Shown piece after piece: positions 83 to 21,481 of a stretch of 24,032 nucleotides of DNA. Below the pieces are notes generated by a model. That model had not been told where the DNA came from and ran no database searches. It saw nothing but the letters and a program-made list of their open reading frames with translations. The DNA is taken from positions 1 through 24,032 of the forward strand of contig JBGQGI010000001.1 in NCBI GenBank assembly GCA_041497375.1, read 5' to 3'. This DNA comes from Candidatus Dormibacteraceae bacterium (GTDB taxonomy: Bacteria > Chloroflexota > Dormibacteria > Dormibacterales > Dormibacteraceae). The position numbers and the translations under genes are program-made. Position 1 is the first letter of the stretch; each line of letters opens with the position of its first letter.

Positions 83-958
83 TCAGCCGGCCAGCACGCG
101 GGCGACGCGAGCTGCCACCCGCGCGTTGTTGACGACGAGCTCGACGTTCAGCTCGAGGGATCGCCCGCCCGACAGCTCCGCCACGCGCGCCAGGAGCCGG
201 GGCGTCGCCTCGGGGCCGACAACATTGGACAGCTCGCGTGTGGCCCGCAGCACGATCTCCTCCGCGCCCTCGAGCTCGCCGGGTGGCGGGATCGCGACCA
301 CCACGCCTCGCGAGCCCGTGGCCCAGGCCGCGCTCAACACCGCGGCCGTCTCCTCCGGTCCATCGACTCGTGTGGGGACTGGGCACCCGCTGTGCCGGCT
401 GTAGAAAGCAGGTAGCTCGTCGCAACCGTATCCGAGCACTGGAACCGAAAGGCTCTCCAGCCTCTCGAGCGTATAGGCCAGGTCGAGGATGATCTTGGCT
501 CCGGCGCAGAAGACGGCGACGGCTGATCGACTGAGCTCGACGAGGTCGGCCGATTGGTCCTCCGGGTGGCCGCGGTGCACTCCGCCGATGCCTCCGGTGG
601 CGAAGCAGCGGATGCCGGCCATCTCCGCAGCGCGCATCGTTGCCGCCACAGTGGTGGCGCCAACCGTATGGCGCACCAGCGCCGGGCCGAGATCGCGCGA
701 GCTCACCTTGGCCGCGCCGCCTGCGAGGCGCTCGACCTCGGCGTCGGTCAAGCCGACCACGATCTGGCCGTCGAGCACACCGATGGTCGCGGGCACCCCG
801 CCTTCCTTTCTTATGGCCGACTCGCAGTCGCGCGCCGCTCGAAGGTTGTGGGGGGAGGGGAGGCCCTGACCCACGATCGAGGTTTCGAGGGCGACCACCG
901 GGCGGCCTCCCGCAAGCGCCTCTGCCACCTCGGGCGACATTCGAAGCAGGTCGCTCAA
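83..958 (-). CDS. psuG: Pseudouridine-5'-phosphate glycosidase (PsuG/IndA family)
   Basis: Family motifs EVAEAL..RPVVALE, VPATIG, AKVSSRDL, GATTVAATM, FATGGIGGVHRG, SADL, CAGAKIILD, NNARVAA. The TTG start overlaps the upstream stop (TTGA, 955-958). Confidence 0.92.
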   Translation of the reverse strand: MSDLLRMSPEVAEALAGGRPVVALETSIVGQGLPSPHNLRAARDCESAIRKEGGVPATIGVLDGQIVVGLTDAEVERLAGGAAKVSSRDLGPALVRHTVGATTVAATMRAAEMAGIRCFATGGIGGVHRGHPEDQSADLVELSRSAVAVFCAGAKIILDLAYTLERLESLSVPVLGYGCDELPAFYSRHSGCPVPTRVDGPEETAAVLSAAWATGSRGVVVAIPPPGELEGAEEIVLRATRELSNVVGPEATPRLLARVAELSGGRSLELNVELVVNNARVAARVARVLAG

Positions 959-1794
959 CTCGGCCGGGCCCCGGCTCTGGTCACCGCGCCCGAGGCTACC
1001 ACCACGGCTTTCTCGGCCGCCTCGAGCGGAGTCGCGCCGTCGAGGTAGGCGACGCAGAAAGCGGCGGCCAGAGCGTCGCCGGCGCCGGAGGCATCGACCT
1101 CCTGCACCTTCGGCGCGGGAACGTGCTTCCCGGCAACCCGGCAGCCCTTGGCTCCCATTTTGAGCACAGGCACTTTGGCCAGATCCTCCATTGCGACGCC
1201 CAGGGTTTCAGATTCGGCCGTCGTCCCGAACAGCACGTCGGGTTTCAACTGGGCGAGGTCGCGTGCGAACTGAGCGGGCCCGAACTCCCTGAGGCCCGCG
1301 ACCGACGACAGGTCGATTGACAGCAGCCCGCCGCCTTGCCGCACGAAGTCGATTGCCAATCGCGACGACGCCGCGAGCGGCTTCGTGAACAGCGAGTAGG
1401 ACGGCACGTGGATCAGGTTGACGCCCCGGAACCAAGATTTCCGCAGGTCGTTGGGCTTGAGGCCGGCGCTGGCGCCGCGCTGGGTCGCCATCGTCCGCTC
1501 TCCGTTTGGGCCGACCAGGACCGCGATCATGCCTGTCGGCTCTGGGCCCGAGACCGCGAAGACCTCGACCCCAAGAGCCTCAATCTCGGTCACCAGGCGC
1601 CGGCCGCGGTCATCGTCGCCGACCCGGGTGACGAGCCGAACTGGCGAGCCGAGGGCCGCCACCCATGAGCAGAAGTTGGCAGCCTGCCCGCCGCCGCCCA
1701 CCCGGATCACGGCGGGATTGTCGTCGTCGGGCCGGAGCCGGCCCGACGGGACGATCGTGATATCAAGGACGAGGTCGCCAATCGACAGGATCAT
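955..1794 (-). CDS. PfkB/ribokinase-family kinase, probably pseudouridine kinase-like from its position
   Basis: GDLVLD, GGGQAAN, VGDD..G and C-terminal DASGAGDA (anion hole and catalytic Asp). Its stop is coupled to the psuG start. Confidence 0.88.
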   Translation of the reverse strand: MILSIGDLVLDITIVPSGRLRPDDDNPAVIRVGGGGQAANFCSWVAALGSPVRLVTRVGDDDRGRRLVTEIEALGVEVFAVSGPEPTGMIAVLVGPNGERTMATQRGASAGLKPNDLRKSWFRGVNLIHVPSYSLFTKPLAASSRLAIDFVRQGGGLLSIDLSSVAGLREFGPAQFARDLAQLKPDVLFGTTAESETLGVAMEDLAKVPVLKMGAKGCRVAGKHVPAPKVQEVDASGAGDALAAAFCVAYLDGATPLEAAEKAVVVASGAVTRAGARPS

Positions 1795-1822
1795 CGGTGC
1801 CCCGAGGATAGCCGCGTCTCGA

Positions 1823-2797
1823 CTAGCGCATCGCTCCTCTCACCGTCTTGACGATTCGTGCCACCGTCGGCATCGCCGCATCCTCCATCGGCTGCGCCGC
1901 GGGCAATGGGACGTGCGGCGTCGTGATGCGGACGATGGGTCCATCGAGGTCGTCAAAGCACTCTTCGGCGGCGATCGACGCGATCTCCGCGCCCCACCCG
2001 CACAGTCGCGGGTTCTCCTCGACCGTGAACAGGCGCCCGGTTCTGCTCACCTCGCCGAGGATCGTGCGCGTGTCGAGTGGCACGAGACACCTGACGTCGA
2101 CGACAGTGGCGTGGATGCCTTCACTCTCGAGCTCGGCAGCTGCTGCCAACGCCCTCGGCACCATGGCGGCAAGAGCCACGATCGTGCAGTCGTTGCCGTG
2201 GCGCAGGACCCTGGCCGTGCCGAGGGAGTCGACGTGCTCGCCGTCGGGCACCTCGCCCTTGATGCCGTAGAGCGATTTCTGCTCAAAGAAGAGAACTGGG
2301 TCGGGGTCGCGGATGGCCGCGGCCAGCAGGCCTTTGGCATCGGCAGGCGTTGAGGGCGCAACCACCTTCAGGCCAGGCACCGCCATCGCCCAGTTCTCCA
2401 GGCTCTGGGAGTGCTGCGCGCCAAAGCGCGAACCGCCCCCGTTGGCGGTCCGGATCACCAGCGGCAGCGACACCTGGCCGTCGGTCATGTACCTGGTCTT
2501 GGCGACCTGGTTCGCGATCATGTCCCAGCAGGTGGCTAGAAAGTCAGAGAACATGATCTCGACGATCGGCTTCAGCCCGGTCATGGCCGCGCCCATCGCA
2601 GCGCCGACGATTGCCTGCTCCGAGATCGGCGTGTCGCGCACGCGGTCGGGGCCGAACTGGTCGAGCAATCCGACCGTGGCTTTGAAGACGCCGCCTGCGG
2701 CGGCCACATCCTCGCCGATGAAGTAAACGGTCGGGTCGCGCCTCATCTCCTGCGCGATGCCGGCCGCGACGGCCTCGCGGTACGTCAGCTCCGCCAT
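1823..2797 (-). CDS. TPP-dependent 2-oxoacid/acetoin dehydrogenase E1 beta subunit
   Basis: GEDV, GGVFKAT.GL, DTPISE, EIMFSDF, GAQHSQSLE, PVLFFE, DGPIVRI motifs. Overlaps the alpha-subunit stop by 13 bp. Confidence 0.93.
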   Translation of the reverse strand: MAELTYREAVAAGIAQEMRRDPTVYFIGEDVAAAGGVFKATVGLLDQFGPDRVRDTPISEQAIVGAAMGAAMTGLKPIVEIMFSDFLATCWDMIANQVAKTRYMTDGQVSLPLVIRTANGGGSRFGAQHSQSLENWAMAVPGLKVVAPSTPADAKGLLAAAIRDPDPVLFFEQKSLYGIKGEVPDGEHVDSLGTARVLRHGNDCTIVALAAMVPRALAAAAELESEGIHATVVDVRCLVPLDTRTILGEVSRTGRLFTVEENPRLCGWGAEIASIAAEECFDDLDGPIVRITTPHVPLPAAQPMEDAAMPTVARIVKTVRGAMR

Positions 2798-3807
2798 GCC
2801 GAGCCCCCGTCGCTCCAGACCTGCGTCTCGATGTCCTCGACTCGTGCGGGCGGCGCCTTGCGCGCCTCATCGGTTGCGATGTCGACCTTCTCTTGCGACT
2901 CATCGTCGATCTTCCGAAGCACGCTCTCCTCGACGCCGAGCGAACCAAGCCGCTCACGATAGGTCTGGACCGGGTCGCGGCTCATCCACTCTCGGACCTC
3001 GTCTTTAGGGCGATACGTGGCCGGGTCTCCGCGTGAGTGGCCGCCATGGCGGTAGGTGAGGGCTTCGACGAGCGACGGCCCGTCGCCTGAGCGGGCCCTT
3101 CCGATCGTGCGCGTCGCCGTCTCATGCATCACTTCGACGTCGTTCCCGTCGACCAGGATGCGCTCGAGTCCGTAGGCCGCCGCGCGGTCTGCGGCGGGGT
3201 GCTCGACCGCGGTTACCGATCGGATCGGGGTGTACTCCATGTACTGGTTGTTCTCGCAGACGAACACGACTGGCAGCTTCCACACCACCGCGAGGTTGAG
3301 GGCCTCGTGGAAGGCCCCGATGTTGGTGGTGCCGTCGCCGAAGAAGCAGACCGCCACCTGGCCCGACTTGCGCGCCTGGGCCGACCAGGCGGCACCGGCG
3401 GCGATCGGCAAGTGAGCTCCGACGATCGCGTAAGAGCCCATCGCGCCGTGCGCGACATCGGTCAGGTGCATCGATCCGCCCTTGCCGTGCATCATCCCGT
3501 TCGCGCGGCCGAGAAGCTCTCCCAACGCCGCTGCCATGGAGGCGCCTCGGGCGAGCGTGTGATCGTGACCGCGATACGTGCAGAAGGTGTAGTCGTCCTC
3601 GCGCATCGCCACCGCGTACCCGGCTGCGATCGCTTCCTGGCCCAGCGCGAGATGGCTGGTGCCGCGGATCAGGTTTTCCATGAAGAGGTCGTAGGCCCGC
3701 TGCTCGAAGTCCCTGAGCTCGACCATCAAGCGGTACAGGCGGAGCCGGGTCTCCTGGTCGATGTTTTCGATCTTCGGTGCAGCCGTTTTGCCGGTGCGAG
3801 CTTTCAA
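2785..3807 (-). CDS. TPP-dependent 2-oxoacid/acetoin dehydrogenase E1 alpha subunit
   Basis: GTSHL..GQEA, TYRGH, GKGGSMH, TPP motif GDG...ENN, TYRHGGHS. The TTG start overlaps the upstream stop (TTGA, 3804-3807). Confidence 0.93.
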   Translation of the reverse strand: MKARTGKTAAPKIENIDQETRLRLYRLMVELRDFEQRAYDLFMENLIRGTSHLALGQEAIAAGYAVAMREDDYTFCTYRGHDHTLARGASMAAALGELLGRANGMMHGKGGSMHLTDVAHGAMGSYAIVGAHLPIAAGAAWSAQARKSGQVAVCFFGDGTTNIGAFHEALNLAVVWKLPVVFVCENNQYMEYTPIRSVTAVEHPAADRAAAYGLERILVDGNDVEVMHETATRTIGRARSGDGPSLVEALTYRHGGHSRGDPATYRPKDEVREWMSRDPVQTYRERLGSLGVEESVLRKIDDESQEKVDIATDEARKAPPARVEDIETQVWSDGGSAWRS

Positions 3808-5060
3808 TACGGGTTAGCGATCATCAACTCTTCGGCGGGGAAGAGCGTGATCACCTCATGCCCCGTGGCAGTGACCACGAGCTCCTCCTCGATGCGCGCC
3901 GCCGAGTGTCCGTCGGCGGCGGGGCAGTAGGTCTCAAGGGCGAAGACCATACCCTCCTTGACCTCGACGGGAAACTTGAGCGAGTTCAGCCGGCTGATGA
4001 TCGGCCGCTCGTGCAGGCCCACGCCCAGCCCGTGGCCGAACTGCAGCGCGAACGCCTCCATCTCGCTGGAGAAGCCGAAGTCCGGCGCCTTTGGCCACAC
4101 GCTCGCGATCTGATCCGTGCTCACCCCTGGTTTCACCAGCTCGATCGAGGCGTCGATCCACTCACGCGCCTGCTTGTACGCATCGCGCTGGCCGCGCGTC
4201 GCGCGCCCGACGTTGAAGGTCCTGTAGTAGCACGTGCGATAGCCGTTGTACGACTGGATGATGTCGAAGAAGGCCTGGTCTCCGGGACGGATCAGCCGGT
4301 CGGAGAAGACGTGCGGGTGCGGGTTGCCGCGCTCGCCCGACACTGCGTTGATGGCCTCGACGTCGTCGGAGCCCATGTCGTACAGCTGCTTGCTGGCGAG
4401 GGCCACGAGCTCGTTCTCCCGGATACCCGGCTTCAACGCCTCGAAGATCGTCTGGTAGACGCCGTCGACCATGGCGGCCGCCATCGTGAGCAGCGTGATC
4501 TCGTCCTTCGACTTGATCTGGCGGGCATCGAGCATGGCCTGCTGGCCGTCCACCACGTTGAGGCCGCACTTCTGCAGGGCGAAGATCATCGGCAGCTCGG
4601 CGATGTCGACGCCGAGCGGCTCGCCGCCGACACCTTGCTCCACCATGATCTCCTTCACCGTGCGAGCGAGGTCATCCGACAGTCCCGCCTCCGGCGCCAC
4701 CGCGCCCCGCAGACCGGTCATCCCGGCGCGCGAGTTCTCGGGACGGAGCCACGGCGCGTGCAGCCGGTGGACTTTGGCGGCTGATCCGAAATCCCACAGG
4801 ATCGGCTCGCCCTTGGGGGTGAGCAGCGCGAACCGCGCCACCTTGTCGCGCGCCCACTCGCCGATGTGGGTGCTCGTGATGTAGCGGATGTTGTTCATGT
4901 CGAAGACGAGGATCGCGCCGAGACCCGCATTGGTGATCGCCTCCCTGGCGCGCCCCAGCCGGTACTCGTGCAGGCGGCGAAAGTCGACACGCTCTTCCCA
5001 GTCGACGTGCATCCGCCCGGGCGCCGGGAGCGACGCGACGGGAAACTCAGGCTTGGACAT
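3804..5060 (-). CDS. M24 family (creatinase/aminopeptidase P fold) hydrolase or lyase of unknown substrate
   Basis: Creatinase_N-like DMNNIRYIT; pita-bread motifs GDQAFFD, GYRTCYYRT, GHGLGVGLHE, GMVFALE, RIEE. Start placed at ATG 5060 (MSKPEF) after the SD-like AAAGGTGG; the ORF-track start at 5087 is probably too long. Confidence 0.88.
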   Translation of the reverse strand: MSKPEFPVASLPAPGRMHVDWEERVDFRRLHEYRLGRAREAITNAGLGAILVFDMNNIRYITSTHIGEWARDKVARFALLTPKGEPILWDFGSAAKVHRLHAPWLRPENSRAGMTGLRGAVAPEAGLSDDLARTVKEIMVEQGVGGEPLGVDIAELPMIFALQKCGLNVVDGQQAMLDARQIKSKDEITLLTMAAAMVDGVYQTIFEALKPGIRENELVALASKQLYDMGSDDVEAINAVSGERGNPHPHVFSDRLIRPGDQAFFDIIQSYNGYRTCYYRTFNVGRATRGQRDAYKQAREWIDASIELVKPGVSTDQIASVWPKAPDFGFSSEMEAFALQFGHGLGVGLHERPIISRLNSLKFPVEVKEGMVFALETYCPAADGHSAARIEEELVVTATGHEVITLFPAEELMIANPY

Positions 5061-6015
5061 TCTTGCCACCTTTGACTTCCAGCCCATCGGAGACCTTGCG
5101 GTTTTCGGATTCGAGCTTGAGGTGGGCGCCCCAGGCTTCCATCTGGAGCAGGGCGGCGAAATCCACGTCCCCCAGCTCGAAGCCGATCATGTTGGTGACG
5201 ATCTGATGGACGAGCGCCGCCACCGGCGTCGGGACGTCAAGCTTCCGGGCAGCCTCGAGGCCGAGCTCGAAGTCTTTGCGGAGCAGCTTGCCGGTGAAGG
5301 TCGGCGTGAAATCGAGGTTGACGAATGCCGGCGTCTTGTATCGAGTGAACGTCGAACCCATAACGCTGCCATTCAGAAACTCGAGGTAGTCGGCGCGGGA
5401 GACCCCACCGCGCTCAGCCAGCACGCTGGTCTCGGCCATGATCTGGGTGACGACGCCGAGAACGAGGTTGTGACAGATCTTGACCAGGCGCGCGCGCTCG
5501 CCTTCGCCGACGTAGCTGACCGTTCCCCCGAGCATCTCGAGGTAGGGAAGGGACAGCTCGAACGCCTCGCGCGGACCGGAGACTGCGATGCTGAGGCGTC
5601 CTGCCCGCACCACTTTTGGATTGCCGCTGACCGGACTGGCGAGAAGCGTGCTGCCAACCTCTTCAGCTCTCGCGCGGATCTTCTGCGAGACGTCCATCGA
5701 GACCGTCGAAGAGTCGATGACGACAGCCGGCACCCGACCACCGTTGGAAAGCAGTCCGTCGGGTCCGGTGGTCACCTCGGCGAAGTCCTGCGAGCCGGCG
5801 ACCGAGGTGAAGACGATGTCGCGGTCGGCGAGATCGGCTGGACGGTCGACAAGCCGGGCGCCGAGCTTGACGAGAGGCTCGGCCTTAGCCCTCGTCCGGT
5901 TGTAAACGGAAACGTCGCAACCGCGTTCGAGGAGCCTGGTCACCAGGGCGTAGCCCATCCGGCCGGTGCCGATCCAACCGAGCCGGTGCTTCGTGGGCTT
6001 CATCGTTTTGGACAC
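5047..6015 (-). CDS. NAD(P)-dependent beta-hydroxyacid dehydrogenase family (3-hydroxyisobutyrate DH / 6PGDH-like)
   Basis: GWIGTGRMG Rossmann motif, YNRT, PVSG, catalytic Lys in VKICHN, RKDFELG. Start is uncertain: GTG 6015 (AGGAG about 10 nt upstream) or ATG 6003. The track start at 6075 lies inside the predicted -10 box. Confidence 0.87.
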   Translation of the reverse strand: MSKTMKPTKHRLGWIGTGRMGYALVTRLLERGCDVSVYNRTRAKAEPLVKLGARLVDRPADLADRDIVFTSVAGSQDFAEVTTGPDGLLSNGGRVPAVVIDSSTVSMDVSQKIRARAEEVGSTLLASPVSGNPKVVRAGRLSIAVSGPREAFELSLPYLEMLGGTVSYVGEGERARLVKICHNLVLGVVTQIMAETSVLAERGGVSRADYLEFLNGSVMGSTFTRYKTPAFVNLDFTPTFTGKLLRKDFELGLEAARKLDVPTPVAALVHQIVTNMIGFELGDVDFAALLQMEAWGAHLKLESENRKVSDGLEVKGGKNVQA

Positions 6016-6056
6016 TGCCTCCGGGCTCCTACCAGCCACCGCGGCAGGGGTGAGCG

Positions 6057-6066
6057 CAAACGTTTG
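6057..6066. promoter_or_regulatory. Predicted LacI-family operator, left arm (CAAACGTTTG)
   Basis: Perfect 10-bp palindrome with central CG and the A-rich LacI-type pattern. It lies 4 nt downstream of the minus-strand -10 box, and a near-identical copy is at 7199-7208. Confidence 0.75.
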
Positions 6067-6070
6067 TCTA

Positions 6071-6079
6071 AACATACCA
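6071..6079 (-). promoter_or_regulatory. Extended -10 promoter for the left catabolic arm (TG-G-TATGTT)
   Basis: The minus strand reads TGGTATGTT, matching TGnTAnnnT, in the lacI-dehydrogenase gap. No recognisable -35. Confidence 0.65.
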
Positions 6080-6092
6080 CCGCATTTGCCAT

Positions 6093-7148
6093 CTACTCGG
6101 CCGGGCTTCGCTGTGCGGGCCGCGCGGCCGGTAGCTCATCGGCCCCGACCACGCTCGAGCCGCGCACCACGAGCTGCGGCGCGAACATCACGCGTCTCGG
6201 CGTCAGGACACCGGTCTCGATCTGCTCGAGCAGCATGCGCGCGGCTGCGCTCCCGAACTCGTGTATCGGCACATGGACCGTCGAGAGGCCAGGGATCAGC
6301 CGGCCGGCGAGGGGGATGTCGTTGTAGCCGATGATCGCGAGATCCTCCGGGATGCGCAGGCCTCTTTTCCGCGCCGCCCCGTATGCGCCGACTGCTGTCA
6401 TATCGGTCACCGCAAAGATCGCGGTCGGAGGACGGCTTAGCGACAGCAAGCGGTCCATGGCCTGGGCGCCGCCTTCTTCGACAAAGCCTGACTCGACGAG
6501 CAGGTCGGGGTCGGCATCGATCCCTGCCTCCGCCAGCGCGGCGTGATATCCCTTGCGGCGCAGCACCCCGGTGCTGACCGTTGTCTGGCCGGCCAGATGG
6601 CCGATTCGTACGTGGCCGAGGCCGATCAGGTGCTGGGTGGCCAGGGTGGCACCCGTGACGTCATCCGAGCCGACGAACGGGTCGACGCCTTCCTCGCTGA
6701 ACCGGTTGACAAGGACATAGGGAGTGCGCTGGTGACGCAGCCACCGCACCGCCGGGTCCTTCAAGAACGTGCTCGCCAGGATCATGCCGTCGACCCGGCG
6801 CGCCGCGAGGCTGTGAAGGTGAGCGCGCTGGCGCTCGGGGATGCCGTCCGTGTTGCAGAGGAGCACCTGGTAGCCGCGGGGCGTCGCGCCATCTTCGATG
6901 CCGCGAAACAGGGCTGCGAAGAATGGGTTCGTGATGTCGGGGATCACCACGGCGAGCACGAGCGTCTGGCGCAGCTTGAGTCCGCGGGCCACGCCGTTGG
7001 GCCGGTACTCGGTCTCTCGGAGCAAGGCCTCGATGCGGGTCCGCGTGGTTGCCGCTATGCGCAGCCCAGGATCATTGTTGGCGACGCGCGACACCGTCGA
7101 GGGGTGCACGTTGGCCCGGGACGCGAGCTCTTTCAGTGTTACGGGCAT
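6093..7148 (-). CDS. LacI-family transcriptional regulator
   Basis: N-terminal HTH TLKELASRANVHPSTVSRV, hinge YRPNGVARGL, ITNPFF, IPEDLAIIGYND, LSTV. Confidence 0.95.
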   Translation of the reverse strand: MPVTLKELASRANVHPSTVSRVANNDPGLRIAATTRTRIEALLRETEYRPNGVARGLKLRQTLVLAVVIPDITNPFFAALFRGIEDGATPRGYQVLLCNTDGIPERQRAHLHSLAARRVDGMILASTFLKDPAVRWLRHQRTPYVLVNRFSEEGVDPFVGSDDVTGATLATQHLIGLGHVRIGHLAGQTTVSTGVLRRKGYHAALAEAGIDADPDLLVESGFVEEGGAQAMDRLLSLSRPPTAIFAVTDMTAVGAYGAARKRGLRIPEDLAIIGYNDIPLAGRLIPGLSTVHVPIHEFGSAAARMLLEQIETGVLTPRRVMFAPQLVVRGSSVVGADELPAARPAQRSPAE

Positions 7149-7164
7149 GGCTCGCAGAGTTGCA

Positions 7165-7194
7165 TTGACATTTCGTTTCGCCCATGCCTAACAT
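7165..7194 (+). promoter_or_regulatory. Sigma70-type promoter for the ABC importer arm (TTGACA-N18-TAACAT)
   Basis: Perfect -35 TTGACA at 7165-7170 and TAACAT at 7189-7194, in an otherwise GC-rich sequence. Confidence 0.75.
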
Positions 7195-7198
7195 AGGG

Positions 7199-7208
7199 CA
7201 ATCGTTTG
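7199..7208. promoter_or_regulatory. Predicted LacI-family operator, right arm (CAATCGTTTG)
   Basis: Differs from the 6057-6066 palindrome at one base and shares its G...T flanks on the plus strand. It lies 4 nt after the -10, over the expected transcription start. Confidence 0.75.
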
Positions 7209-7263
7209 TTCACCGCAAGCGCCAATGCGCTGCGAAGCGCCCGCGGATGGGGAGGAGCGAAGC

Positions 7264-8481
7264 ATGCGAAGGGCTTTGATCGCAACAGTGGCGGGCGCCG
7301 GCCTGGCCCTCACCGCTTGCGGTGCGGGAACGGCTACGGCAACTCCTACGCCAGGCACTCCGATAACCATCGGCGTTTCGGTCTCGCTCAGCGGCGACTT
7401 CTCCAGCGACGGCCCTGCTTTGGAGAAGGGCTACGACCTGTGGGCTGAGGACGTCAACAAGAAGGGCGGCCTTCTCGGTCACCAGGTGACGATGAAGTAC
7501 GTCGACGACGCCAGCAGCACGACACAGGTTGTGACCAACTACGAAACTCTGATCTCATCGGAGAAGGTCGCGCTTGTTTTCGGACCTTACTCGAGCTTGC
7601 TGACCAAACCCGCGGCCGTAAGGGTCGATCGCCTCGGCTACGCCTTCCCAGAGCCCGCCGGCGGCGCCCCCTCGGTATTCGCGCTCGGCCTCCACTCGCT
7701 GTTCTTCGTGCAGCCTGCGGCGATCGAGGACAACCTCGTCAGCTACACCAACTGGGTGCTCTCGCTGCCTGCCGACCAGCGACCCAAGACGGCTGCATAT
7801 GCGACCGAGGACGATCCGTTCACGCAGCCTCAGATCGACAAAGCCAAGGGCCTGCTGGAAGCAGCTGGAGTCCAGACGGTCTCGTACAAGGTGTACCCGT
7901 CGGAGACCACGGACTTCACTCCTCTCGCGCTGAAGGTCGCCAGCTCGAACGCCGACGCCGTCATCCTCGGCACCCAGGTGCCTGACGCGATCGCCTTCGT
8001 CAAGACTTTCATCGCGCAGCACTACAACCCGAAGACCCTGATCGAGACTGCGGGTCCGGACCAGGGCGCCCAGTACTCCGACAAGCTCGGGGCGAACACG
8101 GAGGGGATCATGGTTCCGGCCGGCTGGACGTCGGGCTCACAGGCTTACGGCAACCCCACTTTTGTGGCCGAATACATCTCCAAATACGGCGGTTCGGCAG
8201 GCGACATCAGCGCCGACTCAGCCGAGGCCTATAGCGTCGGGCAGGTCGTCGACCAGGCCGCGACCAAGGCCGGCAGCATCGACAACCAGAAGTTGATCGA
8301 CACCCTCCACACAGGTACTTACCAAACGGTCCAGGGCCCGATGGGCTGGGACTCGGTCGGCAAGCCTCAAGGCGGGGTGGGCGTTTTCGTCGAGCAGTGG
8401 CAGAACGGCACAGCGGTCTTCGTCTACCCACCGACCGTTGCCGCCGCCCAGCCCGAATACCCCAAGCACGACTGGCAGTAG
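7264..8481 (+). CDS. HAAT/LivJ-type ABC substrate-binding lipoprotein
   Basis: SD GGAGGAG (7251-7257) then ATG 7264. Signal peptide with lipobox LTAC; type I periplasmic binding protein motifs (VNKKGGLLG, DDASS, VFGPYSS, SAEAY). Confidence 0.92.
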   Translation: MRRALIATVAGAGLALTACGAGTATATPTPGTPITIGVSVSLSGDFSSDGPALEKGYDLWAEDVNKKGGLLGHQVTMKYVDDASSTTQVVTNYETLISSEKVALVFGPYSSLLTKPAAVRVDRLGYAFPEPAGGAPSVFALGLHSLFFVQPAAIEDNLVSYTNWVLSLPADQRPKTAAYATEDDPFTQPQIDKAKGLLEAAGVQTVSYKVYPSETTDFTPLALKVASSNADAVILGTQVPDAIAFVKTFIAQHYNPKTLIETAGPDQGAQYSDKLGANTEGIMVPAGWTSGSQAYGNPTFVAEYISKYGGSAGDISADSAEAYSVGQVVDQAATKAGSIDNQKLIDTLHTGTYQTVQGPMGWDSVGKPQGGVGVFVEQWQNGTAVFVYPPTVAAAQPEYPKHDWQ

Positions 8482-8487
8482 ACGAAA

Positions 8488-8518
8488 CGGGGACGGTTAG
8501 CGAGAGCCGCCGTCCCCG
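8488..8518. other. Intergenic stem-loop after the binding-protein gene, probably an mRNA-stabilising or attenuating element
   Basis: Perfect 9-bp inverted repeat CGGGGACGG (8488-8496) / CCGTCCCCG (8510-8518). No U-tract follows. Confidence 0.6.
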
Positions 8519-8539
8519 CCTCGCTTCCGGGCCGTTGAG

Positions 8540-9415
8540 ATGACCCTGGTCCTGGAAGCGGCGGTGCTGGGCGTCCTGACGGGCGGCGTGTACGCCCTGA
8601 TGGCATCCGGCCTGACCCTGATTTTCGGCGTGATGCGCATCATCAACGTGGGTCACGGCGCGCTCGTGGTTCTTGGGGCATACCTCAGCTTCGTTCTCTG
8701 GCACAACCTGAACATCGATCCATTCGTGAGCCTTGTCGTGACCATGCCTGTCATGTTCGTGTTGGGCGTGATCCTGCAGGTCGTCTTCATCCGTCCATTG
8801 AAAACTGATCGCGAGGCCCTCTCTGTCCTCGTCACGTATTCGATCGCGTTGGGCATCGAGGGTTTGCTTGGGTACTTCTTCACGACGAACTATCTACAGA
8901 TCACCGCCTGGTACGACACGGCGAGCTTCCCCATCGGCGACTTTCGTGTCACCTACGTCTACGTGTACGGCTTTCTGCTCTGCGTGGCCATCCTGGGCGC
9001 GATCTTTCTGATGCTCTACCGCACCACCCTTGGCGGCGCCATCCGGGCCACGATGCTCAACCGGACGGCTGCCCAGCTCGTTGGCATCGACGTTGACCGG
9101 GTCTCGGCGATCGCCTTCGGCATCGGCATGGCCACTGCAGCTGCCGGCGGCGTGGTGTTCGGCATCACCACCACGTTCAACCCGGGGAGCCACTACGACC
9201 TGATCTCGAGATTGCTGACGATCATCGTCCTTGGAGGCCTGGGAAGCCTGCGCGGCGCCATCATCGCCGCCGTCGTAATGCTCGTGATCGAGGACATCAC
9301 CTCGGTGGTTATTTCGCCCGTGTGGGCCAGCTTCGTCTTCTTCGTCATCCTCGTCGTCGTGTTGCTGGTACGTCCGCAGGGACTGTTCGGTTTGACGGTG
9401 CGGGAGCGGCTATGA
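8540..9415 (+). CDS. HAAT ABC permease, LivH-like
   Basis: GLTLIFGVMRIINVGHG, GGAIRAT, LVGIDV, IIVLGGLGSLRGA; multiple TM segments. Confidence 0.92.
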   Translation: MTLVLEAAVLGVLTGGVYALMASGLTLIFGVMRIINVGHGALVVLGAYLSFVLWHNLNIDPFVSLVVTMPVMFVLGVILQVVFIRPLKTDREALSVLVTYSIALGIEGLLGYFFTTNYLQITAWYDTASFPIGDFRVTYVYVYGFLLCVAILGAIFLMLYRTTLGGAIRATMLNRTAAQLVGIDVDRVSAIAFGIGMATAAAGGVVFGITTTFNPGSHYDLISRLLTIIVLGGLGSLRGAIIAAVVMLVIEDITSVVISPVWASFVFFVILVVVLLVRPQGLFGLTVRERL

Positions 9416-10416
9416 AGCTGCCGCGCGACAGGCGCGTCCTGATGGCTCTGGTCCTGGTCGCGGTCCTGGCTCTCGCCCTCGTGTTTCCGGCGATATCGCC
9501 CGATTCGTCGACCACGAACATCATGGTCTTCACGCTTATGTACGTCGGGCTCGCGACCGCCTGGAACATCATGGGCGGCTACACCGGCTATATCTCGCTG
9601 GGACACGCGGGTTTCTTCGGCTTCGGGTCCTACGCGCTCGGCCTCCTCCTTGCCAGGCTCGGGGTTGCGGGCGGCTACGCGCCTTTTCTGTTCGTTCCGT
9701 TGGCCGGACTCCTCACGGCAGTGCTGGCCGCTGCGGTCGGCTGGTTCGCGCTGCGGACTCGGGCGGCGACCTTTGTGATCGTGACCATCGCCTTCATGTT
9801 CATGCTGCAGCTGCTGGCTGAAAATCTCACGAGCTTGACCGGCGGTGGGGCAGGCCTCGGCTTCCCAAACCCGCCCTGGCGCGGCGACTTCTTCGACATC
9901 CCGTTCTACTACGCGATGCTGGTGCTTGCCCTCCTGGGCATTGCCGTCTCATGGTGGATCAGGCGATCGAAGTTCGGCCTCGGGCTGCTGGCGATCCGCG
10001 ATGACGAGGACAAAGCGCTCGCCGTCGGCGTCCCGGCTCGGGCATTCAAGCTGACAGCCTTTGTGATCAGCGCCGCGCTGGTGGGCATGATCGGCGCCGT
10101 GTACGGCTATTACGTGACCTTCATCTATCCGCAGTTCGTGGTCGATCCGCTCATCGGCATCTCGATGGTGTTAATGGTGTTCCTGGGTGGGCTCGGCACT
10201 CTGTGGGGACCGGTGCTCGGTGCGCTCATCCTCGAACCAGCGCAACTGTGGCTGGCATACAACTACGGCGCCAGCCGGCTCTACCTCGTCCTGTACTCAG
10301 CCGTCTTCCTGCTCGTCATCCTGCTGATGCCGCGAGGCATCATCCCTTCGCTTCAAGAATTGATCGCCCGGCGCCGGGCGAGCGCGCGGGTGCACGGGGT
10401 TGGGGCAGCGCCGTGA
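9412..10416 (+). CDS. HAAT ABC permease, LivM-like
   Basis: ATG 9412 overlaps the previous stop (ATGA). Motifs WNIMGGYTGYISLGHAGFFG, SKFGLGLLAIRDDE, VFLGGLGTLWGP. Confidence 0.92.
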   Translation: MKLPRDRRVLMALVLVAVLALALVFPAISPDSSTTNIMVFTLMYVGLATAWNIMGGYTGYISLGHAGFFGFGSYALGLLLARLGVAGGYAPFLFVPLAGLLTAVLAAAVGWFALRTRAATFVIVTIAFMFMLQLLAENLTSLTGGGAGLGFPNPPWRGDFFDIPFYYAMLVLALLGIAVSWWIRRSKFGLGLLAIRDDEDKALAVGVPARAFKLTAFVISAALVGMIGAVYGYYVTFIYPQFVVDPLIGISMVLMVFLGGLGTLWGPVLGALILEPAQLWLAYNYGASRLYLVLYSAVFLLVILLMPRGIIPSLQELIARRRASARVHGVGAAP

Positions 10417-11144
10417 GCCTGCTCCAGGTCGATCACCTCAGCAAGCGCTTCGGCGGCGTCGTCGCGGTCGATGATTGCACGCTCTCGATTCCTGCGGGCG
10501 GCATCACAGGGCTCATCGGTCCAAACGGATCGGGCAAGACGACGATCTTCAACTTGATCACCGGCTTCATCGCCAAGGACGAGGGGCGGATCACATTCAA
10601 GTCACAGCCGATCGACGGCCTCGGGCCCGACATGGTTTACGCGCGCGGCATCGGCCGCACGTTTCAGCTCGCCCGCATCTTCCCTCGCCTCACGGCTCTC
10701 GAGAACTTGTTGGTGCCGATTCGCCGAAGAGGACTGCGCGCGCTGTTCTCACGCGCCGCCCGGAGCGATGAGAGGTCGAAAGCGATGGAGATGCTGGAGT
10801 TCCTCGAGATCGCTCACGTCGCGGACGTCCTTGGTGGATCGCTGTCGTATGGGCAGCGCAAGCTCCTGGAGCTGGGCGCGGTGATGATGGCCGAGCCCGA
10901 GCTGGTGCTGCTGGACGAGCCGGCCGGCGGCGTCAACCCGGCGCTGCTCGAACGTATCGCCGACCGCCTCCGCACCCTCAACTCGCGCGGAACCACCTTC
11001 CTCATCGTGGAGCACAACATGAGCTTTGTCATGAACCTCTGCTCCGAGGTCATAGTCGTGCAACGAGGACGCCAGATCGCAAGCGGCACGCCCGAGGCGG
11101 TGCGCAGCGACCCCGCAGTCCTCGACGCGTACCTGGGCGCCTGA
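10413..11144 (+). CDS. HAAT ABC ATP-binding protein, LivG-like
   Basis: GTG 10413 in a GTGA overlap. Walker A GPNGSGKTT, signature LSYGQ, Walker B LLDEP, H-loop VEHN. Confidence 0.93.
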   Translation: MSLLQVDHLSKRFGGVVAVDDCTLSIPAGGITGLIGPNGSGKTTIFNLITGFIAKDEGRITFKSQPIDGLGPDMVYARGIGRTFQLARIFPRLTALENLLVPIRRRGLRALFSRAARSDERSKAMEMLEFLEIAHVADVLGGSLSYGQRKLLELGAVMMAEPELVLLDEPAGGVNPALLERIADRLRTLNSRGTTFLIVEHNMSFVMNLCSEVIVVQRGRQIASGTPEAVRSDPAVLDAYLGA

Positions 11145-11145
11145 C

Positions 11146-11862
11146 ATGGCCGCATTGCTCGAGCTGCAAGGCCTGGTTGCCGGCTACGGCGGCGGCGACA
11201 TCCTGCTCGGCGTCGATCTGAGCGTCGACGAGGGAAGTCTGACGTGCATAGTCGGGCCCAACGGCGCAGGGAAGTCGACATTGTTGCGAGTGATCAGCGG
11301 CTTGCTGCGGCCGACTCGGGGTTCGGTGAAGTTTCGTCGCGAGTCAATCGCTGCGCTCAGCCCTCGCGCAATTCTCACTCGCGGCATCGTCCAGGTCCCG
11401 CAGGAGCGCAGCCTGTTTCCGACCATGACGGTCTGGGAAAACGTGCGCCTCGGGGCTTACACCGTGCGCGACAAGGGTCTGGTCGAGCGGCGCCTGGCGG
11501 CGGTGGGGGAGACCTTCCCGATCGTAAAAGAGCGTCGCCACGAGCTTGCAGCTTCGTTGTCCGGCGGCCAGCAGAAGATCGTGGAGTTCGCGCGGGCAAT
11601 GATGCTCGACCCATCTCTCCTCATCCTCGACGAGCCCTCGATGGGCCTCGACCCGAAGACCCGCACGACCGTCTTCAACACGATTCGCACGATGAACGAC
11701 GCAGGTCACACGCTTCTCCTCGTCGAGCAGAACGCGCGGTCCGGGCTTGGCATCGCGACGCACGGCGTGGTGATGGAGAGCGGGAGGATCCGGCTGGAGG
11801 GCCCCGGGCCCGAGGTGCTGAGCAACCCGGAGATCGGCCGCCTGTATCTGGGCGCCGCGTGA
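11146..11862 (+). CDS. HAAT ABC ATP-binding protein, LivF-like
   Basis: Walker A GPNGAGKST, VPQER, LSGGQ, ILDEPSMGL, LVEQN, YLG. Confidence 0.93.
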   Translation: MAALLELQGLVAGYGGGDILLGVDLSVDEGSLTCIVGPNGAGKSTLLRVISGLLRPTRGSVKFRRESIAALSPRAILTRGIVQVPQERSLFPTMTVWENVRLGAYTVRDKGLVERRLAAVGETFPIVKERRHELAASLSGGQQKIVEFARAMMLDPSLLILDEPSMGLDPKTRTTVFNTIRTMNDAGHTLLLVEQNARSGLGIATHGVVMESGRIRLEGPGPEVLSNPEIGRLYLGAA

Positions 11863-13451
11863 GCCGGCACGACATCGTGTTCGCAGGCGCCGGCCATAAC
11901 AACCTGGTCGCCGCAGCCTACGCGGCGCGCGCGGGTTTCAAGGTGCTGGTCCTGGAGGGCGCGCCACAGATCGGCGGCGACACCACCACCCAGGAGCTGA
12001 CGCTGCCGGGCTTCCTCCACGATCCGTGCGCCACCGCGCACAACGTGATCCAGAGCAACCCGCTGATGCGAAACAACGAGCTCGAGCTCGGCCGTCACGG
12101 GCTCAAATACCTCCATCCGGACCCCGTATTCACCATGCCGTTCCTCGACGGCAGCTCGATCACGATGTGGCGCGATGTCGAAAGGACCTGCGCCGAGCTG
12201 GCCAGGTTCTCCGCAGCAGACGCCCTCGCGTACAGGCAGCTGCTCGCCGATTGGGACCAGATGGCAAAGGTGATCAACGATGAGAGAGCCAGCGCACCTG
12301 CGCCGCCGGACGAGGTCATCGCACGCACCCTGGCCAGCCCACTGGGCGAGAAGATGAAAGCGATCCGCGATGACAGCGCCATCGACATCGTCAGAGAGCG
12401 GTTCCGCGACGATCACGTTCGCGCCTTCTTTGCGTGGATCGCCTTCATGACGCTGCATCCGCTCGACGAGCCGGAGTCCGGCATCATGGCCTTCTCGCTG
12501 GCGGCGGGCCGCCAGCGGTTCAGCTGGATCCTGCCCGAAGGCGGTTCGATTCAGCTGCCGCTTGCTCTGGCGCGCGACATCGAGGAGCACGGCGGCACCG
12601 TCCTCTCGTCGAAGCGGATCACACGTATCGCCGTGGAAGGCGGGAGGGCGACCGCGGTTGAGACCGAAGACGGGTCGACCTACGAAGCTGACCGGGCGAT
12701 CGTCTCGACGATCCACGTGAAGCACCTGGCCGGGATCGTCGGCGAGCAGAACCTGCCAGGCGACTACCTGGCCGGGGTGGCCAGATGGCAGCCGAACCTC
12801 ACGATGTTCGTCACCCATTACGCAATGTCGGAGGCGCCCCGTTTTCGGATGGCCGACGGCCTTGGCGCCAGCGTGACGATGGGAGCGCTCGAATCCCTCG
12901 AGGCTTACGCCGCCATGCTCTCCGCTTTCCGAGCCGGGCGGATCGACCTCGACGAGCCAGTGTTTCTTGCACTCACGCCCTCAGTCATCGATGCCACGAG
13001 GGCGCCTGCCGGCAAGCACACGTTCAAGGTGGTGAGCTTCCTGCCGTACGAGCTTGCGCAGGGTCCAGAGCATTGGGACACGATCAAGCAGGACGTTTCC
13101 AACGAGCTCTTCGAGCGGCTCTCGCTGCTGTCGCCAAACCTTTCCCGTCGGATCGTGATGGCCGAGCACGTCGATTCGCCGCTGGACCTCGAACGCAGAA
13201 ATCCAGCGAACTGGCGAGGCTCGTGCCATGGCGGGGCCAACTCGCCGGAGCAGAGCGGGTGGTTCAGGCCCATGGAGGGCTGGTCCTCGTACCGGACGCC
13301 CATCGACGGCCTGTATCAGACAGGGGCCTGTACCCATCCGGGCGGCTCTGTCTCAGGTCTGCCAGGTCGCAACTGCGCGGAGGTGCTCCTGCGCGATCTC
13401 GGCTCGAGCCTCGACGAGGCCATCGCGGGTACCAGGATCGCGGCTTCATGA
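11859..13451 (+). CDS. FAD-dependent oxidoreductase, phytoene desaturase/CrtO/PYROXD2-like (COG1233 type)
   Basis: GTG 11859 in a GTGA overlap. N-terminal dinucleotide fold GAGHNNLVAAAY...VLE...IGG, PEGGS, SPLDLE, C-terminal YRTPIDGLYQTGACTHPGGSVSG. Confidence 0.88.
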   Translation: MSRHDIVFAGAGHNNLVAAAYAARAGFKVLVLEGAPQIGGDTTTQELTLPGFLHDPCATAHNVIQSNPLMRNNELELGRHGLKYLHPDPVFTMPFLDGSSITMWRDVERTCAELARFSAADALAYRQLLADWDQMAKVINDERASAPAPPDEVIARTLASPLGEKMKAIRDDSAIDIVRERFRDDHVRAFFAWIAFMTLHPLDEPESGIMAFSLAAGRQRFSWILPEGGSIQLPLALARDIEEHGGTVLSSKRITRIAVEGGRATAVETEDGSTYEADRAIVSTIHVKHLAGIVGEQNLPGDYLAGVARWQPNLTMFVTHYAMSEAPRFRMADGLGASVTMGALESLEAYAAMLSAFRAGRIDLDEPVFLALTPSVIDATRAPAGKHTFKVVSFLPYELAQGPEHWDTIKQDVSNELFERLSLLSPNLSRRIVMAEHVDSPLDLERRNPANWRGSCHGGANSPEQSGWFRPMEGWSSYRTPIDGLYQTGACTHPGGSVSGLPGRNCAEVLLRDLGSSLDEAIAGTRIAAS

Positions 13452-14518
13452 CCGCGCACGAAACCACCAATCGCGTGCAGGTGGCGGCCCACCACTGGCG
13501 GCCCCGGTTCGTTGCCAACGGTATCGACGTCAACGACTTCGACGATACCGTTGCCAAAACCACCGAATGGAAGGATTGGGCGCCCAACTGGAAGGCGGTA
13601 GGAGAGGTGCACGAGGCGCTTGGCCAGGAGGCCGAGGAGCGCGGGCGGTGGGTATCGGCGGCGCAGGCCTATCAGCGAGCTGCGTGGTGCTGGCATCTCG
13701 GCAAGTTCCTCTGGTTCGAAGACGCGTCGCTGCATGGCGAGCTGCGCGACAGGTCGGTCGCCATCTACCGAAAGGCGCTGCCGCACCTCGATCCCCCCGC
13801 GGAGCGCCTGGAGATCCCGTTCGAAGGCGGCGCCATCCCGGGCAACCTCAGGCGGCCGGCGCATTCTTCGAACCCTCCACTGGTGCTGCTCGTGCCGGGG
13901 CTCGACTCCTCCAAGGAAGAGCTGTTCGCGATCGAGGACGACTTTCTTCGTCGCGGTCTGGCGACGCTGACCATCGACGGCCCAGGCCAGTCCGAGAACT
14001 CAGTCCATTTCGCGATCCGACCCAACTGGGAGACGGTGATCACGCCGCTGCTCGACCACCTTGCAGGCGCCGACCTTGGCGTGGACCAGGACCGGATAGG
14101 CCTGATGGGAATCAGCATGGGCGCCATCTACGGACCGCGCGCTGCCGCATACGAAAAGCGCATCAAGGCGCTGGTCGGCCTGGCGGGTCCTTACAACCTT
14201 GGCGAGTGCTGGGATGCGCTGAACACCCTCACGCGAGGCGGGTACGTGTTCTACACCAAGTCAGCGGACGAGGCGGAGGCAAAACGCAAGGCATACACCT
14301 TGAATCTCGAAGGCATCCTCGACAGGGTCAACCAGCCGATGCTCGTCATCCACGGCGGCAAGGACCGCCTGTTCCCGCCGGCGCACGCTGAGCGGATCGC
14401 GCGCGAGGCGGGCAACGCCACCTTGGTGATCTATCCGGACGGCAACCACGTGTGCAACAACATCGCCTACAAGTACCGCCCGCTGATGGCGGACTGGCTC
14501 GCCGACCAGCTCCTTTAA
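13448..14518 (+). CDS. Alpha/beta hydrolase, 2,6-dihydroxypseudooxynicotine hydrolase/FrsA-like
   Basis: ATG 13448 in an ATGA overlap. Nucleophile GISMG, acid HGGKD, His DGNHVC, plus PGLDSSKEE and DGPGQ motifs of this family. Confidence 0.85.
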   Translation: MTAHETTNRVQVAAHHWRPRFVANGIDVNDFDDTVAKTTEWKDWAPNWKAVGEVHEALGQEAEERGRWVSAAQAYQRAAWCWHLGKFLWFEDASLHGELRDRSVAIYRKALPHLDPPAERLEIPFEGGAIPGNLRRPAHSSNPPLVLLVPGLDSSKEELFAIEDDFLRRGLATLTIDGPGQSENSVHFAIRPNWETVITPLLDHLAGADLGVDQDRIGLMGISMGAIYGPRAAAYEKRIKALVGLAGPYNLGECWDALNTLTRGGYVFYTKSADEAEAKRKAYTLNLEGILDRVNQPMLVIHGGKDRLFPPAHAERIAREAGNATLVIYPDGNHVCNNIAYKYRPLMADWLADQLL

Positions 14519-19281: not shown

Positions 19282-19983
19282 TTAGCGCGTGTGGTGGCGG
19301 GCGATCGCCTGCTTGAGCGTCTCGACCACGCGGCTAAGGTGCTCCCTCATGGCCGCCTCGCTGCGGTCTGGATCGCGGGCGGCAAGCGCTTCGACGATCT
19401 CGGCGTGCTCGCGCAGCGAGCGGTCGGGCCGGCCGGGCTGCAGGATCGTGCGGTACTGGAACCTGATGCTCTGCGATTTGAGGTTGGCCACCAGCGTCGA
19501 GGCCACGCCCTGGCCGGCGATGGCCCAGATCATCTCGTGGAAGCGAGAGTTGAGCTCCGAATAGCCCAGCGGATCGCCGGCATCGACCCGGGCGGTCATC
19601 TCTTCGAGGATCTGGCGAAGGTTCCGCGTATCGCGGGGCGTGATCCGCGTCGCTGCGTGCCTCGCCAGCATCTGCTCGAGCGCGACCCGCACCTCCTCGA
19701 TCTCGAGCGCCTCCCGGTCCGAGACGAGTCGCACGCGGGCTCCGCGGTTGGGCTGGCGCTCGACCAGGCCTTCCTGGTCCAGCCTGACCAGCGCCGCTCG
19801 GATCGCCGTGCGTCCCGCGCCGAAGGTCCGGGCGAGGTCCGCCTCGACGAGCCTTTCGTTGGGCTGGAAGCGGCCGTCGACGATCGCTTCTCGAAGCCTC
19901 AGGTATGCGCTCGCGCCGCCGCGAGCCTCTCGTTCGGCTGCACGAGCCGGCACTTCAGTCACAGCTGGGGAGGTGGTCGCCAT
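19282..19983 (-). CDS. GntR-family regulator with FCD domain (FadR/VanR type)
   Basis: wHTH LREAIVDGRFQPNERLVEADLA..GRTAIRAAL..L..EGLV; FCD motifs NSRFH and EHAEI. ATG 19983 follows the SD-like AAGGA; the track start at 20124 overlaps the divergent gene. Confidence 0.93.
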   Translation of the reverse strand: MATTSPAVTEVPARAAEREARGGASAYLRLREAIVDGRFQPNERLVEADLARTFGAGRTAIRAALVRLDQEGLVERQPNRGARVRLVSDREALEIEEVRVALEQMLARHAATRITPRDTRNLRQILEEMTARVDAGDPLGYSELNSRFHEMIWAIAGQGVASTLVANLKSQSIRFQYRTILQPGRPDRSLREHAEIVEALAARDPDRSEAAMREHLSRVVETLKQAIARHHTR

Positions 19984-20041
19984 GTTCCGATCTTTCCTTG
20001 CCGGTAAGAATATGCTGCAGTCCGGCTGGATTGTGCATAGA

Positions 20042-20053
20042 ATTGTCGACAAT
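20042..20053. promoter_or_regulatory. Predicted GntR operator (ATTGTCGACAAT)
   Basis: Perfect 12-bp palindrome in the AT-rich divergent gap between gntR and the second binding-protein gene. TTGT-N2-ACAA type sites are typical of FCD-type GntR regulators. Confidence 0.7.
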
Positions 20054-20091
20054 CCGTATTTTTGGTAAGTGCTCAATAGCGAGGAACGAAG

Positions 20092-21450: not shown

Positions 21451-21481
21451 CGCCACCACTTAGCCACAGGAGCCAAGCGCC

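Follow-up and report, generated by a model that had tools for sequence, protein, structure and literature searches.

Two conserved CG-centred palindromes flank a LacI-family repressor gene in a Candidatus Dormibacteraceae bacterium and probably control its uptake and catabolic operons

The lacI locus and its two palindromes

Contig JBGQGI010000001.1 of a Candidatus Dormibacteraceae draft assembly (GCA_041497375.1) carries a LacI-family repressor gene between a series of catabolic genes on the same strand and an importer operon on the opposite strand. A CG-centred palindrome is present just beyond each end of the repressor gene. The question raised by this locus is whether the two palindromes are operators of the repressor encoded between them, and whether one protein thereby governs both gene arms and its own gene. 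The whole contig (C1 of the assembly) was analysed, and its 24,032 nucleotides are referred to here as the window. The assembly totals 1.62 Mb in 251 contigs, is 64% complete and has a GC content of 65%. The reading favoured here is a dimeric, locally acting LacI/GalR repressor with two operators that would control both arms and itself, with a probability of roughly 0.82 for the model as a whole. The features on which the argument turns are as follows.

6093-7148, minus strand: LacI-family repressor gene, 351 aa (Pfam LacI helix-turn-helix, HTH, and Peripla_BP_3/1)
6057-6066, no strand: left operator core CAAACGTTTG, a perfect 10-bp palindrome centred on CG
7199-7208, no strand: right operator core CAATCGTTTG, a 9/10 palindrome
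83-6003, minus strand: catabolic arm, whole (Pfam and NCBIfam)
7264-14518, plus strand: uptake arm, whole, divergent from lacI (Pfam and NCBIfam)

Between the lacI stop codon (6093-6095) and the left core there are 26 nt, and the ATG of the dehydrogenase gene follows 54 nt beyond the core. This core sits within a conserved 12-mer (6056-6067). Measured from the lacI ATG (7148, minus strand), the right core occupies positions 51-60 nt upstream; measured from the ATG of the binding-protein gene (7264, plus strand), it occupies positions 56-65 nt upstream. The centres of the two cores are 1142 bp apart, in agreement with the distance of about 1.14 kb given in a first-pass annotation of this DNA. 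That annotation's reading of both arms also matches the window sequence exactly in its hexamers, its spacings and the placement of lacI between the sites. On the minus strand, the left arm reads TG (6079-6078), G, TATGTT (6076-6071), TAGA and CAAACGTTTG (6066-6057). On the plus strand, the right arm reads TTGACA (7165-7170), 18 nt, TAACAT (7189-7194), AGGG and CAATCGTTTG (7199-7208). Both cores in the window begin 4 nt past a TAnnnT hexamer. Compared to the even, CG-centred palindrome of 16-22 nt typical of LacI/GalR operators, the sites have the central CG and 10-bp symmetry (perfect on the left, 9/10 on the right); positions beyond approximately 6 nt from the centre are conserved without symmetry.

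The exact core CAAWCGTTTG occurs three times in the 1.62-Mb assembly, and two of these copies flank lacI. The third, CAAACGTTTG at G000:C25:5009-5018, falls within codons 6-9 of a minus-strand gene, does not have the conserved flanks and probably matches by chance. When the genome is scored with a 16-nt position weight matrix (PWM) built from the orthologous sites, the left site reaches 27.8 bits and the right site 28.1 bits. The next-best position in the genome scores 17.5, which is lower than any true site.

Orthologous loci

As judged by sequence comparison, the decisive evidence for the sites being real is their conservation in 24 orthologous loci. Thirteen of these come from a contig collection (LacI 72-90% identical) and 11 from genomes of the same genus (80-93%). 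The loci are kin and are not independent of one another: those at 91-93% identity add little, and those at 72-81% carry the argument. The closest LacI orthologs are found in genomes labelled Candidatus Dormibacterota or, earlier, 'Chloroflexi CF_'. The Candidatus Dormibacterota host is uncultured and belongs to soil or sediment.

At the left position, all 24 loci have a core, CAAACGTTTG in 22 of them and CAATCGTTTG in L012 and L092. The right site is present in 22/22 loci in which the region is intact, a count that leaves out L006, which starts at lacI, and L005, which has a deletion. These counts bear out the check proposed in the first-pass annotation, namely that the motif should be conserved upstream of orthologous operons. 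The right site always carries the same A/T imperfection (CAAACGATTG in lacI orientation); at the left site, the palindrome is perfect in nearly every locus. Core columns of the alignment are invariant, and spacer columns off the motif show about 40-60% agreement. This pattern of conserved sites between diverging flanks is a phylogenetic footprint of a LacI/GalR operator. Because they are unique in the genome and conserved in position while the spacer varies, the two sites are best read as real operators of a local, self-regulated LacI regulon.

The two sites are paired at 1100-1159 bp in the orthologous loci. Sites were also listed in 31 related genomes, and the unpublished genome G019 enters only these tallies. 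Among the sites listed, pairs 1.1-1.16 kb apart occur only where an ortholog of this LacI is present. Pairs that follow the ortholog in this way support the earlier proposal that the palindromes are operators of the LacI encoded between them and tie the transporter and catabolic arms together, as far as sequence can speak to it.

The gene order lacI, HIBADH, M24, E1 alpha and E1 beta is kept in most orthologous loci. Transporter genes are divergent from lacI in 12/13 loci, and the remaining one, L006, starts at lacI and holds no such region.

Among more distant LacI homologs, which come from Firmicutes and other phyla and are 35-47% identical, most have no perfect nAAnCGnTTn upstream or have other cores, and they therefore provide no footprint for this group. 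One Spirochaetia locus among them has the same core.

Two further observations concern sequence changes at these loci. In L005 (CF_12 scaffold_71064, L005:3940-4020), a deletion fuses the left half of the operator (TGAACAAACG) to lacI codon 4. The promoter, the other half-site and the lacI start codon have been removed. L010, from the same genome bin, is a further copy of the whole locus and is intact. In run X25, the contig of a relative has several small indels in the transporter leader (window 7219-7262). No indel is found in the promoter and operator (7165-7210) among the variants listed for that contig, which agrees with the constraint seen in the alignment.

A two-way promoter at the right site

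Two promoters that point in opposite directions meet at the right site.

7165-7194, plus strand: transporter promoter, TTGACA (7165-7170), 18-nt spacer, TAACAT (7189-7194) (consensus scan)
7190-7218, minus strand: lacI promoter, TTGCGG (7218-7213), 17-nt spacer with the operator inside, TATGTT (7195-7190) (alignment)

The transporter promoter is the only sigma-70-like site called in 5950-7350, with a 10/12 match to a consensus that may not be the host's. TTGACA, a spacer of 17-18 nt and TAnnnT toward the transporter are present in 23/23 sequences, window included. The right operator begins 4 nt past this -10 and overlies the expected start near 7201. In the direction of lacI, TTGCnn is found at a fixed 17-nt spacing in 21/23 sequences; L003 has TTGTCC and L012 has GAACGG. 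The two -10 hexamers lie on opposite strands and overlap with a 1-nt offset, so that they share a heptamer, TAnnnTA, which is invariant in the 23 sequences. The inner bases of this heptamer vary (TATGTTA, TATGGTA, TATCTTA and TACCTTA). Each overlapping -10 has its own -35 within 16-18 nt (N18 and N17 here). If a distance of 7 nt from -10 to start is assumed, divergent starts are predicted near 7201 (plus) and 7183 (minus), 18 bp apart.

The first-pass annotation had placed a transporter promoter and an operator on the right arm. Both are borne out, but the conserved lacI-directed promoter that shares the -10 was overlooked. Since the right operator lies within a two-way promoter, one site likely represses the transporter and lacI. 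The alignment thus suggests that control by the right operator probably extends from the transporter to lacI, which would amount to autoregulation.

Divergent starts 18 bp apart represent the most common class of bacterial bidirectional promoter, and acrR/acrAB, with its local auto-repressor, is an example (PMC12825309). The lacI locus resembles the bidirectional acrR/acrAB promoters (Warman et al., PMC12825309) in its TAnnnTA overlap and in predicted starts approximately 18 bp apart. In both, each -35 is located within the leader of the opposite transcript, and one side encodes a repressor of both genes. The repressor is the TetR-type AcrR in that system and a LacI-type protein here, where the starts are predicted.

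The left promoter and transcription from lacI

The left site is preceded by a less complete promoter.

6071-6079, minus strand: candidate extended -10, TG-G-TATGTT, of the catabolic arm (sequence reading)

In 19 relatives, TAnnnT is found exactly 3 nt before the left operator, and most of these have TGn ahead of it. Many of the 19 also contain TTGACA 17-18 nt upstream, close behind the lacI stop. In the window, one extra T makes the spacing 4 nt, a value seen in the window only, and the left -35 has been lost by a short deletion, as it has in L096 and L097. The left start is predicted near 6064 (minus). In L003, L005, L007, L008 and L013, the left operator is approximately 10 nt past the stop and has no evident promoter.

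The operator had been described as standing in identical geometry at both ends of lacI. This holds in the window, where both spacings are 4 nt, but not in the 19 relatives, where the left spacing is 3 nt, nor in the five without a clear promoter. The identical geometry is a coincidence of the window's genome. A left promoter squeezed just behind the lacI stop, as the same description had it, is found in many relatives; the window itself has an extended -10 without a -35.

One alternative is that the left site is mainly a transcriptional roadblock. lacI would then be the first gene of the catabolic operon, and bound repressor would halt polymerases arriving from the lacI promoter, leaving lacI expressed at a basal level and the enzymes off. 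Roadblock repression has been established for members of the LacI family, including CcpA at internal cre sites and PurR at purB. The catabolic genes lie on the same strand as lacI, the gap that separates them from it is 89 nt, and a scan found no terminator-like site between lacI and the left operator. The -35 missing from the window, L096 and L097 and the five relatives with an operator but no clear promoter point in the same direction. However, the TAnnnT placed 3 nt before the operator in 19 relatives, many of them with TTGACA, argues for a working promoter. As the main function of the left site, a roadblock is a possible explanation but not a probable one. Roadblock and promoter occlusion are not mutually exclusive, and because no promoter is evident in five relatives, the left site may act partly or mainly as a roadblock.

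The LacI protein and DNA looping

The LacI HTH (PF00356) is found at residues 4-51 with an E-value of 1.5e-11 and 44.4 bits, compared to a cut-off of 27, and is also recovered in a six-frame search of the genome. The effector domain matches PF13377 (E 4.7e-37) and PF00532 (E 2.1e-31), and the protein aligns over its full length with structures of RbsR, CcpA and PurR. Among solved structures, E. coli RbsR (9ny7, E 7e-63) is the closest. The best NCBIfam matches are all under the equivalog cut-off: RbsR with 234 bits against 531, CytR with 231 against 436 and PurR with 216 against 501. With scores this far under the cut-offs, the protein is therefore not an ortholog of RbsR or PurR.

In the hinge, the query sequence N-G-V-A-R-G-L-K is aligned with S-A-L-A-R-S-L-K of RbsR. 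The leucine in this motif corresponds to the residue that inserts at the central CpG in the PurR and LacI complexes. The leucine hinge motif is kept in the alignment, which fits a CG-centred site.

The first-pass annotation hinted that the operators might loop DNA. In this alternative, the two sites cooperate via a 1.14-kb loop that encloses the repressor gene, in the manner of the main and auxiliary operators of E. coli lac. Two sites with the same motif are always paired at 1100-1159 bp, and DNA looping does occur in the family, by the LacI tetramer and by GalR together with HU. However, the C-terminal heptad-leucine tetramerisation helix was not found in this protein: the alignment to LacI stops at query residue 330 (LacI 327), before the helix. 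The 19-residue tail (333-351) is Pro- and Ala-rich, and several orthologs stop matching at residues 333-346. The closest solved relatives, RbsR, CcpA and PurR, are dimers. The spacing between the sites equals the length of the lacI gene, and helical phasing is not conserved, with the fractional turn ranging freely from 0.0 to 0.95 among loci. Each site also has its own promoter to control. Looping is very improbable on this evidence, and the two sites most likely act independently.

Regulon scope and the identity of the regulator

Neither an exact-core search nor the 16-nt PWM found further regulon members in the whole draft genome. The suggestion that the motif could be used to find other members of the regulon thus yields nothing in this genome, and the extra cores of relatives are probably sites of paralogs. 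With one mismatch allowed, the window contains 7 strand-wise matches compared to 1.5 expected. The matches at 20365 and 20689 were rejected as regulon sites; both are inside the binding-protein gene of a second Liv-type transporter.

In the related genome G002, the two sites are the sole cores in 3.4 Mb. The genomes G001, G003 and G004 contain extra cores that are scattered, some intragenic and some intergenic, and none of these is found in more than one of the three genomes. The 12-mer RCAAWCGWTTGY is several-fold commoner than its reversed control in many of the genomes G005-G034, each of which has several LacI-like candidates. Counts on the forward and reverse strands are 9 and 8 in G006 (control 1 and 1) and 11 and 8 in G013 (control 0 and 1). 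This enrichment suggests that the relatives hold a set of LacI paralogs with a common operator core, and the same-core sites away from the locus probably serve these other paralogs. A core-only scan would therefore probably pick up paralog operators. In L013 (6055-8485), two extra tandem LacI-family paralogs are present between the dehydrogenase and M24 genes. Each is preceded by an operator-like site, GCAAACGTTTGC at 6163-6174 and GCAAACGATTGC at 7334-7345.

The same enrichment is one reason to consider that the palindromes serve another regulator, either a global CcpA- or PurR-like protein or a LacI paralog, and that their adjacency to lacI is incidental. The core CAAACGTTTG is, in addition, that of the E. 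coli PurR box. Nevertheless, the motif is confined to this locus in the genome, and the assembly has only one other LacI HTH (G000:C108:6040-6108, cut by a contig end). The pair of sites tracks the ortholog and is absent among the listed sites of genomes that lack it, and in L013 every extra tandem paralog comes with a copy of the site. A cre-type site was rejected after the flanks were compared with the cre consensus, which they do not match. Control of the pair by another regulator is accordingly a remoter prospect still than looping.

A chance repeat of an AT-rich word in the two intergenic regions can be dismissed: a bare 11/12 word is common to both regions in about 3% of shuffles and base composition predicts approximately 1.5 exact cores in 1.6 Mb, but a perfect 10-bp palindrome in one region together with a match of at least 9/10 in the other occurs in only 1/1000 shuffles, and the invariance of both sites in position and core over 24 loci with diverging flanks refutes a chance origin.

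Gene content of the two arms

The genes of the two arms, assigned with Pfam and NCBIfam, are as follows.

5047-6003, minus strand: HIBADH-like dehydrogenase, first catabolic gene
3804-5087, minus strand: M24-fold enzyme, given as the longest open reading frame, start putative
2785-3807, minus strand: E1 alpha of a thiamine-dependent dehydrogenase
1823-2797, minus strand: E1 beta of a thiamine-dependent dehydrogenase
955-1794, minus strand: PfkB kinase
83-958, minus strand: PsuG/IndA-like protein
7264-8481, plus strand: binding protein of a Liv-type ABC importer, followed by two permeases and two ATPases
11859-13451, plus strand: CrtO-like flavoprotein
13448-14518, plus strand: alpha/beta hydrolase

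The distribution of genes between the arms differs among relatives. In G001 (L089, C1:45000-55300), the transporter arm continues past the hydrolase with M24, E1 alpha and E1 beta, and this locus gave no CrtO-like match. In G002 (L088, C1:26200-34000), the catabolic arm ends after E1 beta without a PfkB or PsuG-like gene, and the flavoprotein and hydrolase follow the transporter. The PfkB and PsuG/IndA-like genes may be a recent addition in the window. Since genes move between the arms, as in G001, the arms behave as one functional unit.

Further along the window (19282-23364), a gene for a GntR/FCD-family regulator (19282-20124, minus) is divergent from the second Liv-type ABC transporter, whose binding-protein gene (20092-21450) has permeases behind it. 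This looks like a separate local regulon.

Proposed mechanism

In the favoured model, the 6093-7148 protein would bind as a dimer to two CG-centred CAAWCGTTTG palindromes, one on either side of its own gene. The right site covers the predicted transporter start and fills the spacer between the lacI -35 and -10, so one dimer bound there could shut off both the importer arm and lacI, giving negative autoregulation. The left, perfect palindrome, just downstream of the candidate -10 behind the lacI stop, would block the catabolic arm. It would also stop read-through from lacI, because there is no terminator between them. Uptake and breakdown would be coupled by a small-molecule effector that frees both sites of repressor, and this effector is probably the substrate brought in by the importer or a compound made from it. 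Judging by the enzymes, candidate substrates are small amides, amino compounds, hydroxy acids, nucleosides and ribose. One inducer for both arms, as the first-pass annotation proposed, is plausible from the arrangement of the sites.

Several points weigh against this model. The left promoter was not called by the consensus scan and has no recognisable -35 in the window, and the five relatives without an evident promoter leave the left site with a possible role that is partly or mainly that of a roadblock. The promoters in general were judged by a consensus that may not be that of Dormibacterota. Symmetry is limited to the 10-12 bp core, and the outer positions of the 16-20 bp site expected for the LacI family are not palindromic. 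With the genome 64% complete, the assembly could be missing distant regulon members. The targets differ from typical sugar genes, whereas carbohydrate use is what 96% of the LacI groups with an assigned pathway control (PMC4052901). Sequence alone does not separate a ligand that acts as an inducer, as with RbsR, from one that acts as a co-repressor, as with PurR. Run searches and read mapping for the locus gave DNA contigs only, and the one run with an RNA-Seq label probably consists of DNA from a relative that is 90-95% similar.

Discussion

The locus agrees well with what is known of local LacI/GalR regulons. Even, CG-centred palindromes are found for 1173/1303 LacI regulators (Ravcheev et al. 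2014, PMC4052901). Within the family, 72% are autoregulated, about 90% are local, and more than 75% of sites are located 30-140 bp before a start codon (PMC4052901). Both operators described here are 51-65 bp upstream of start codons, and the locus fits all four figures. It shares with those regulons a protein made of an HTH and a periplasmic-binding-protein-like domain, a palindrome with a central CG, sites within 30-140 bp upstream, probable autoregulation, and adjacent transporter and catabolic operons (PMC4052901). It differs from them in its uncultured Dormibacterota host and in a site that is symmetric only over a 10-12 bp core. The targets also include no recognisable sugar genes: they are a Liv-type importer, an M24-fold enzyme, E1 alpha/beta without E2, an HIBADH-like dehydrogenase, a flavoprotein and a hydrolase.

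Comparison with individual E. coli regulators gives a similar picture. RbsR and PurR are the best family and structure matches, and their hinge leucine motif is kept here. The PurR box has the operator core at its centre, and the RbsR site is similar to that core. How closely the PurR and RbsR motifs are related has been discussed previously (PMC4052901). In contrast to RbsR and PurR, the regulon described here is local, not global, and contains no rbs or pur genes. The lac repressor belongs to the same family, and both it and the present locus have more than one operator per locus. Unlike lac, the present system has no tetramerisation tail, its operators are 1.14 kb apart, each operator is at its own promoter, and phasing is not conserved. 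The locus adds no new mechanism to the known LacI-family regulators, and its control is ordinary bacterial control.

A further reading is put forward tentatively and is rather unlikely as it stands: the locus may serve a non-sugar catabolic pathway not yet described, as a switch that is graded and insulates itself. The imperfect right site would be leaky toward the importer and the repressor, and the perfect left site would be tight, acting as both operator and roadblock. If this were true, the M24-fold, E1 alpha/beta (without E2) and HIBADH-like enzymes would stay tightly off until the imported compound arrives, and some relatives would have no control of the catabolic arm other than the roadblock.

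The locus represents a clean regulatory unit in a phylum that has no genetically tractable member in culture. With it come a defined operator, a probable two-way promoter and a candidate sigma-70-like consensus (TTGACA, 17-18 nt, TAnnnT) that is conserved across Dormibacterota genomes. In practical terms, the repressor offers a handle on the compound used by a conserved transporter-plus-enzyme cluster.

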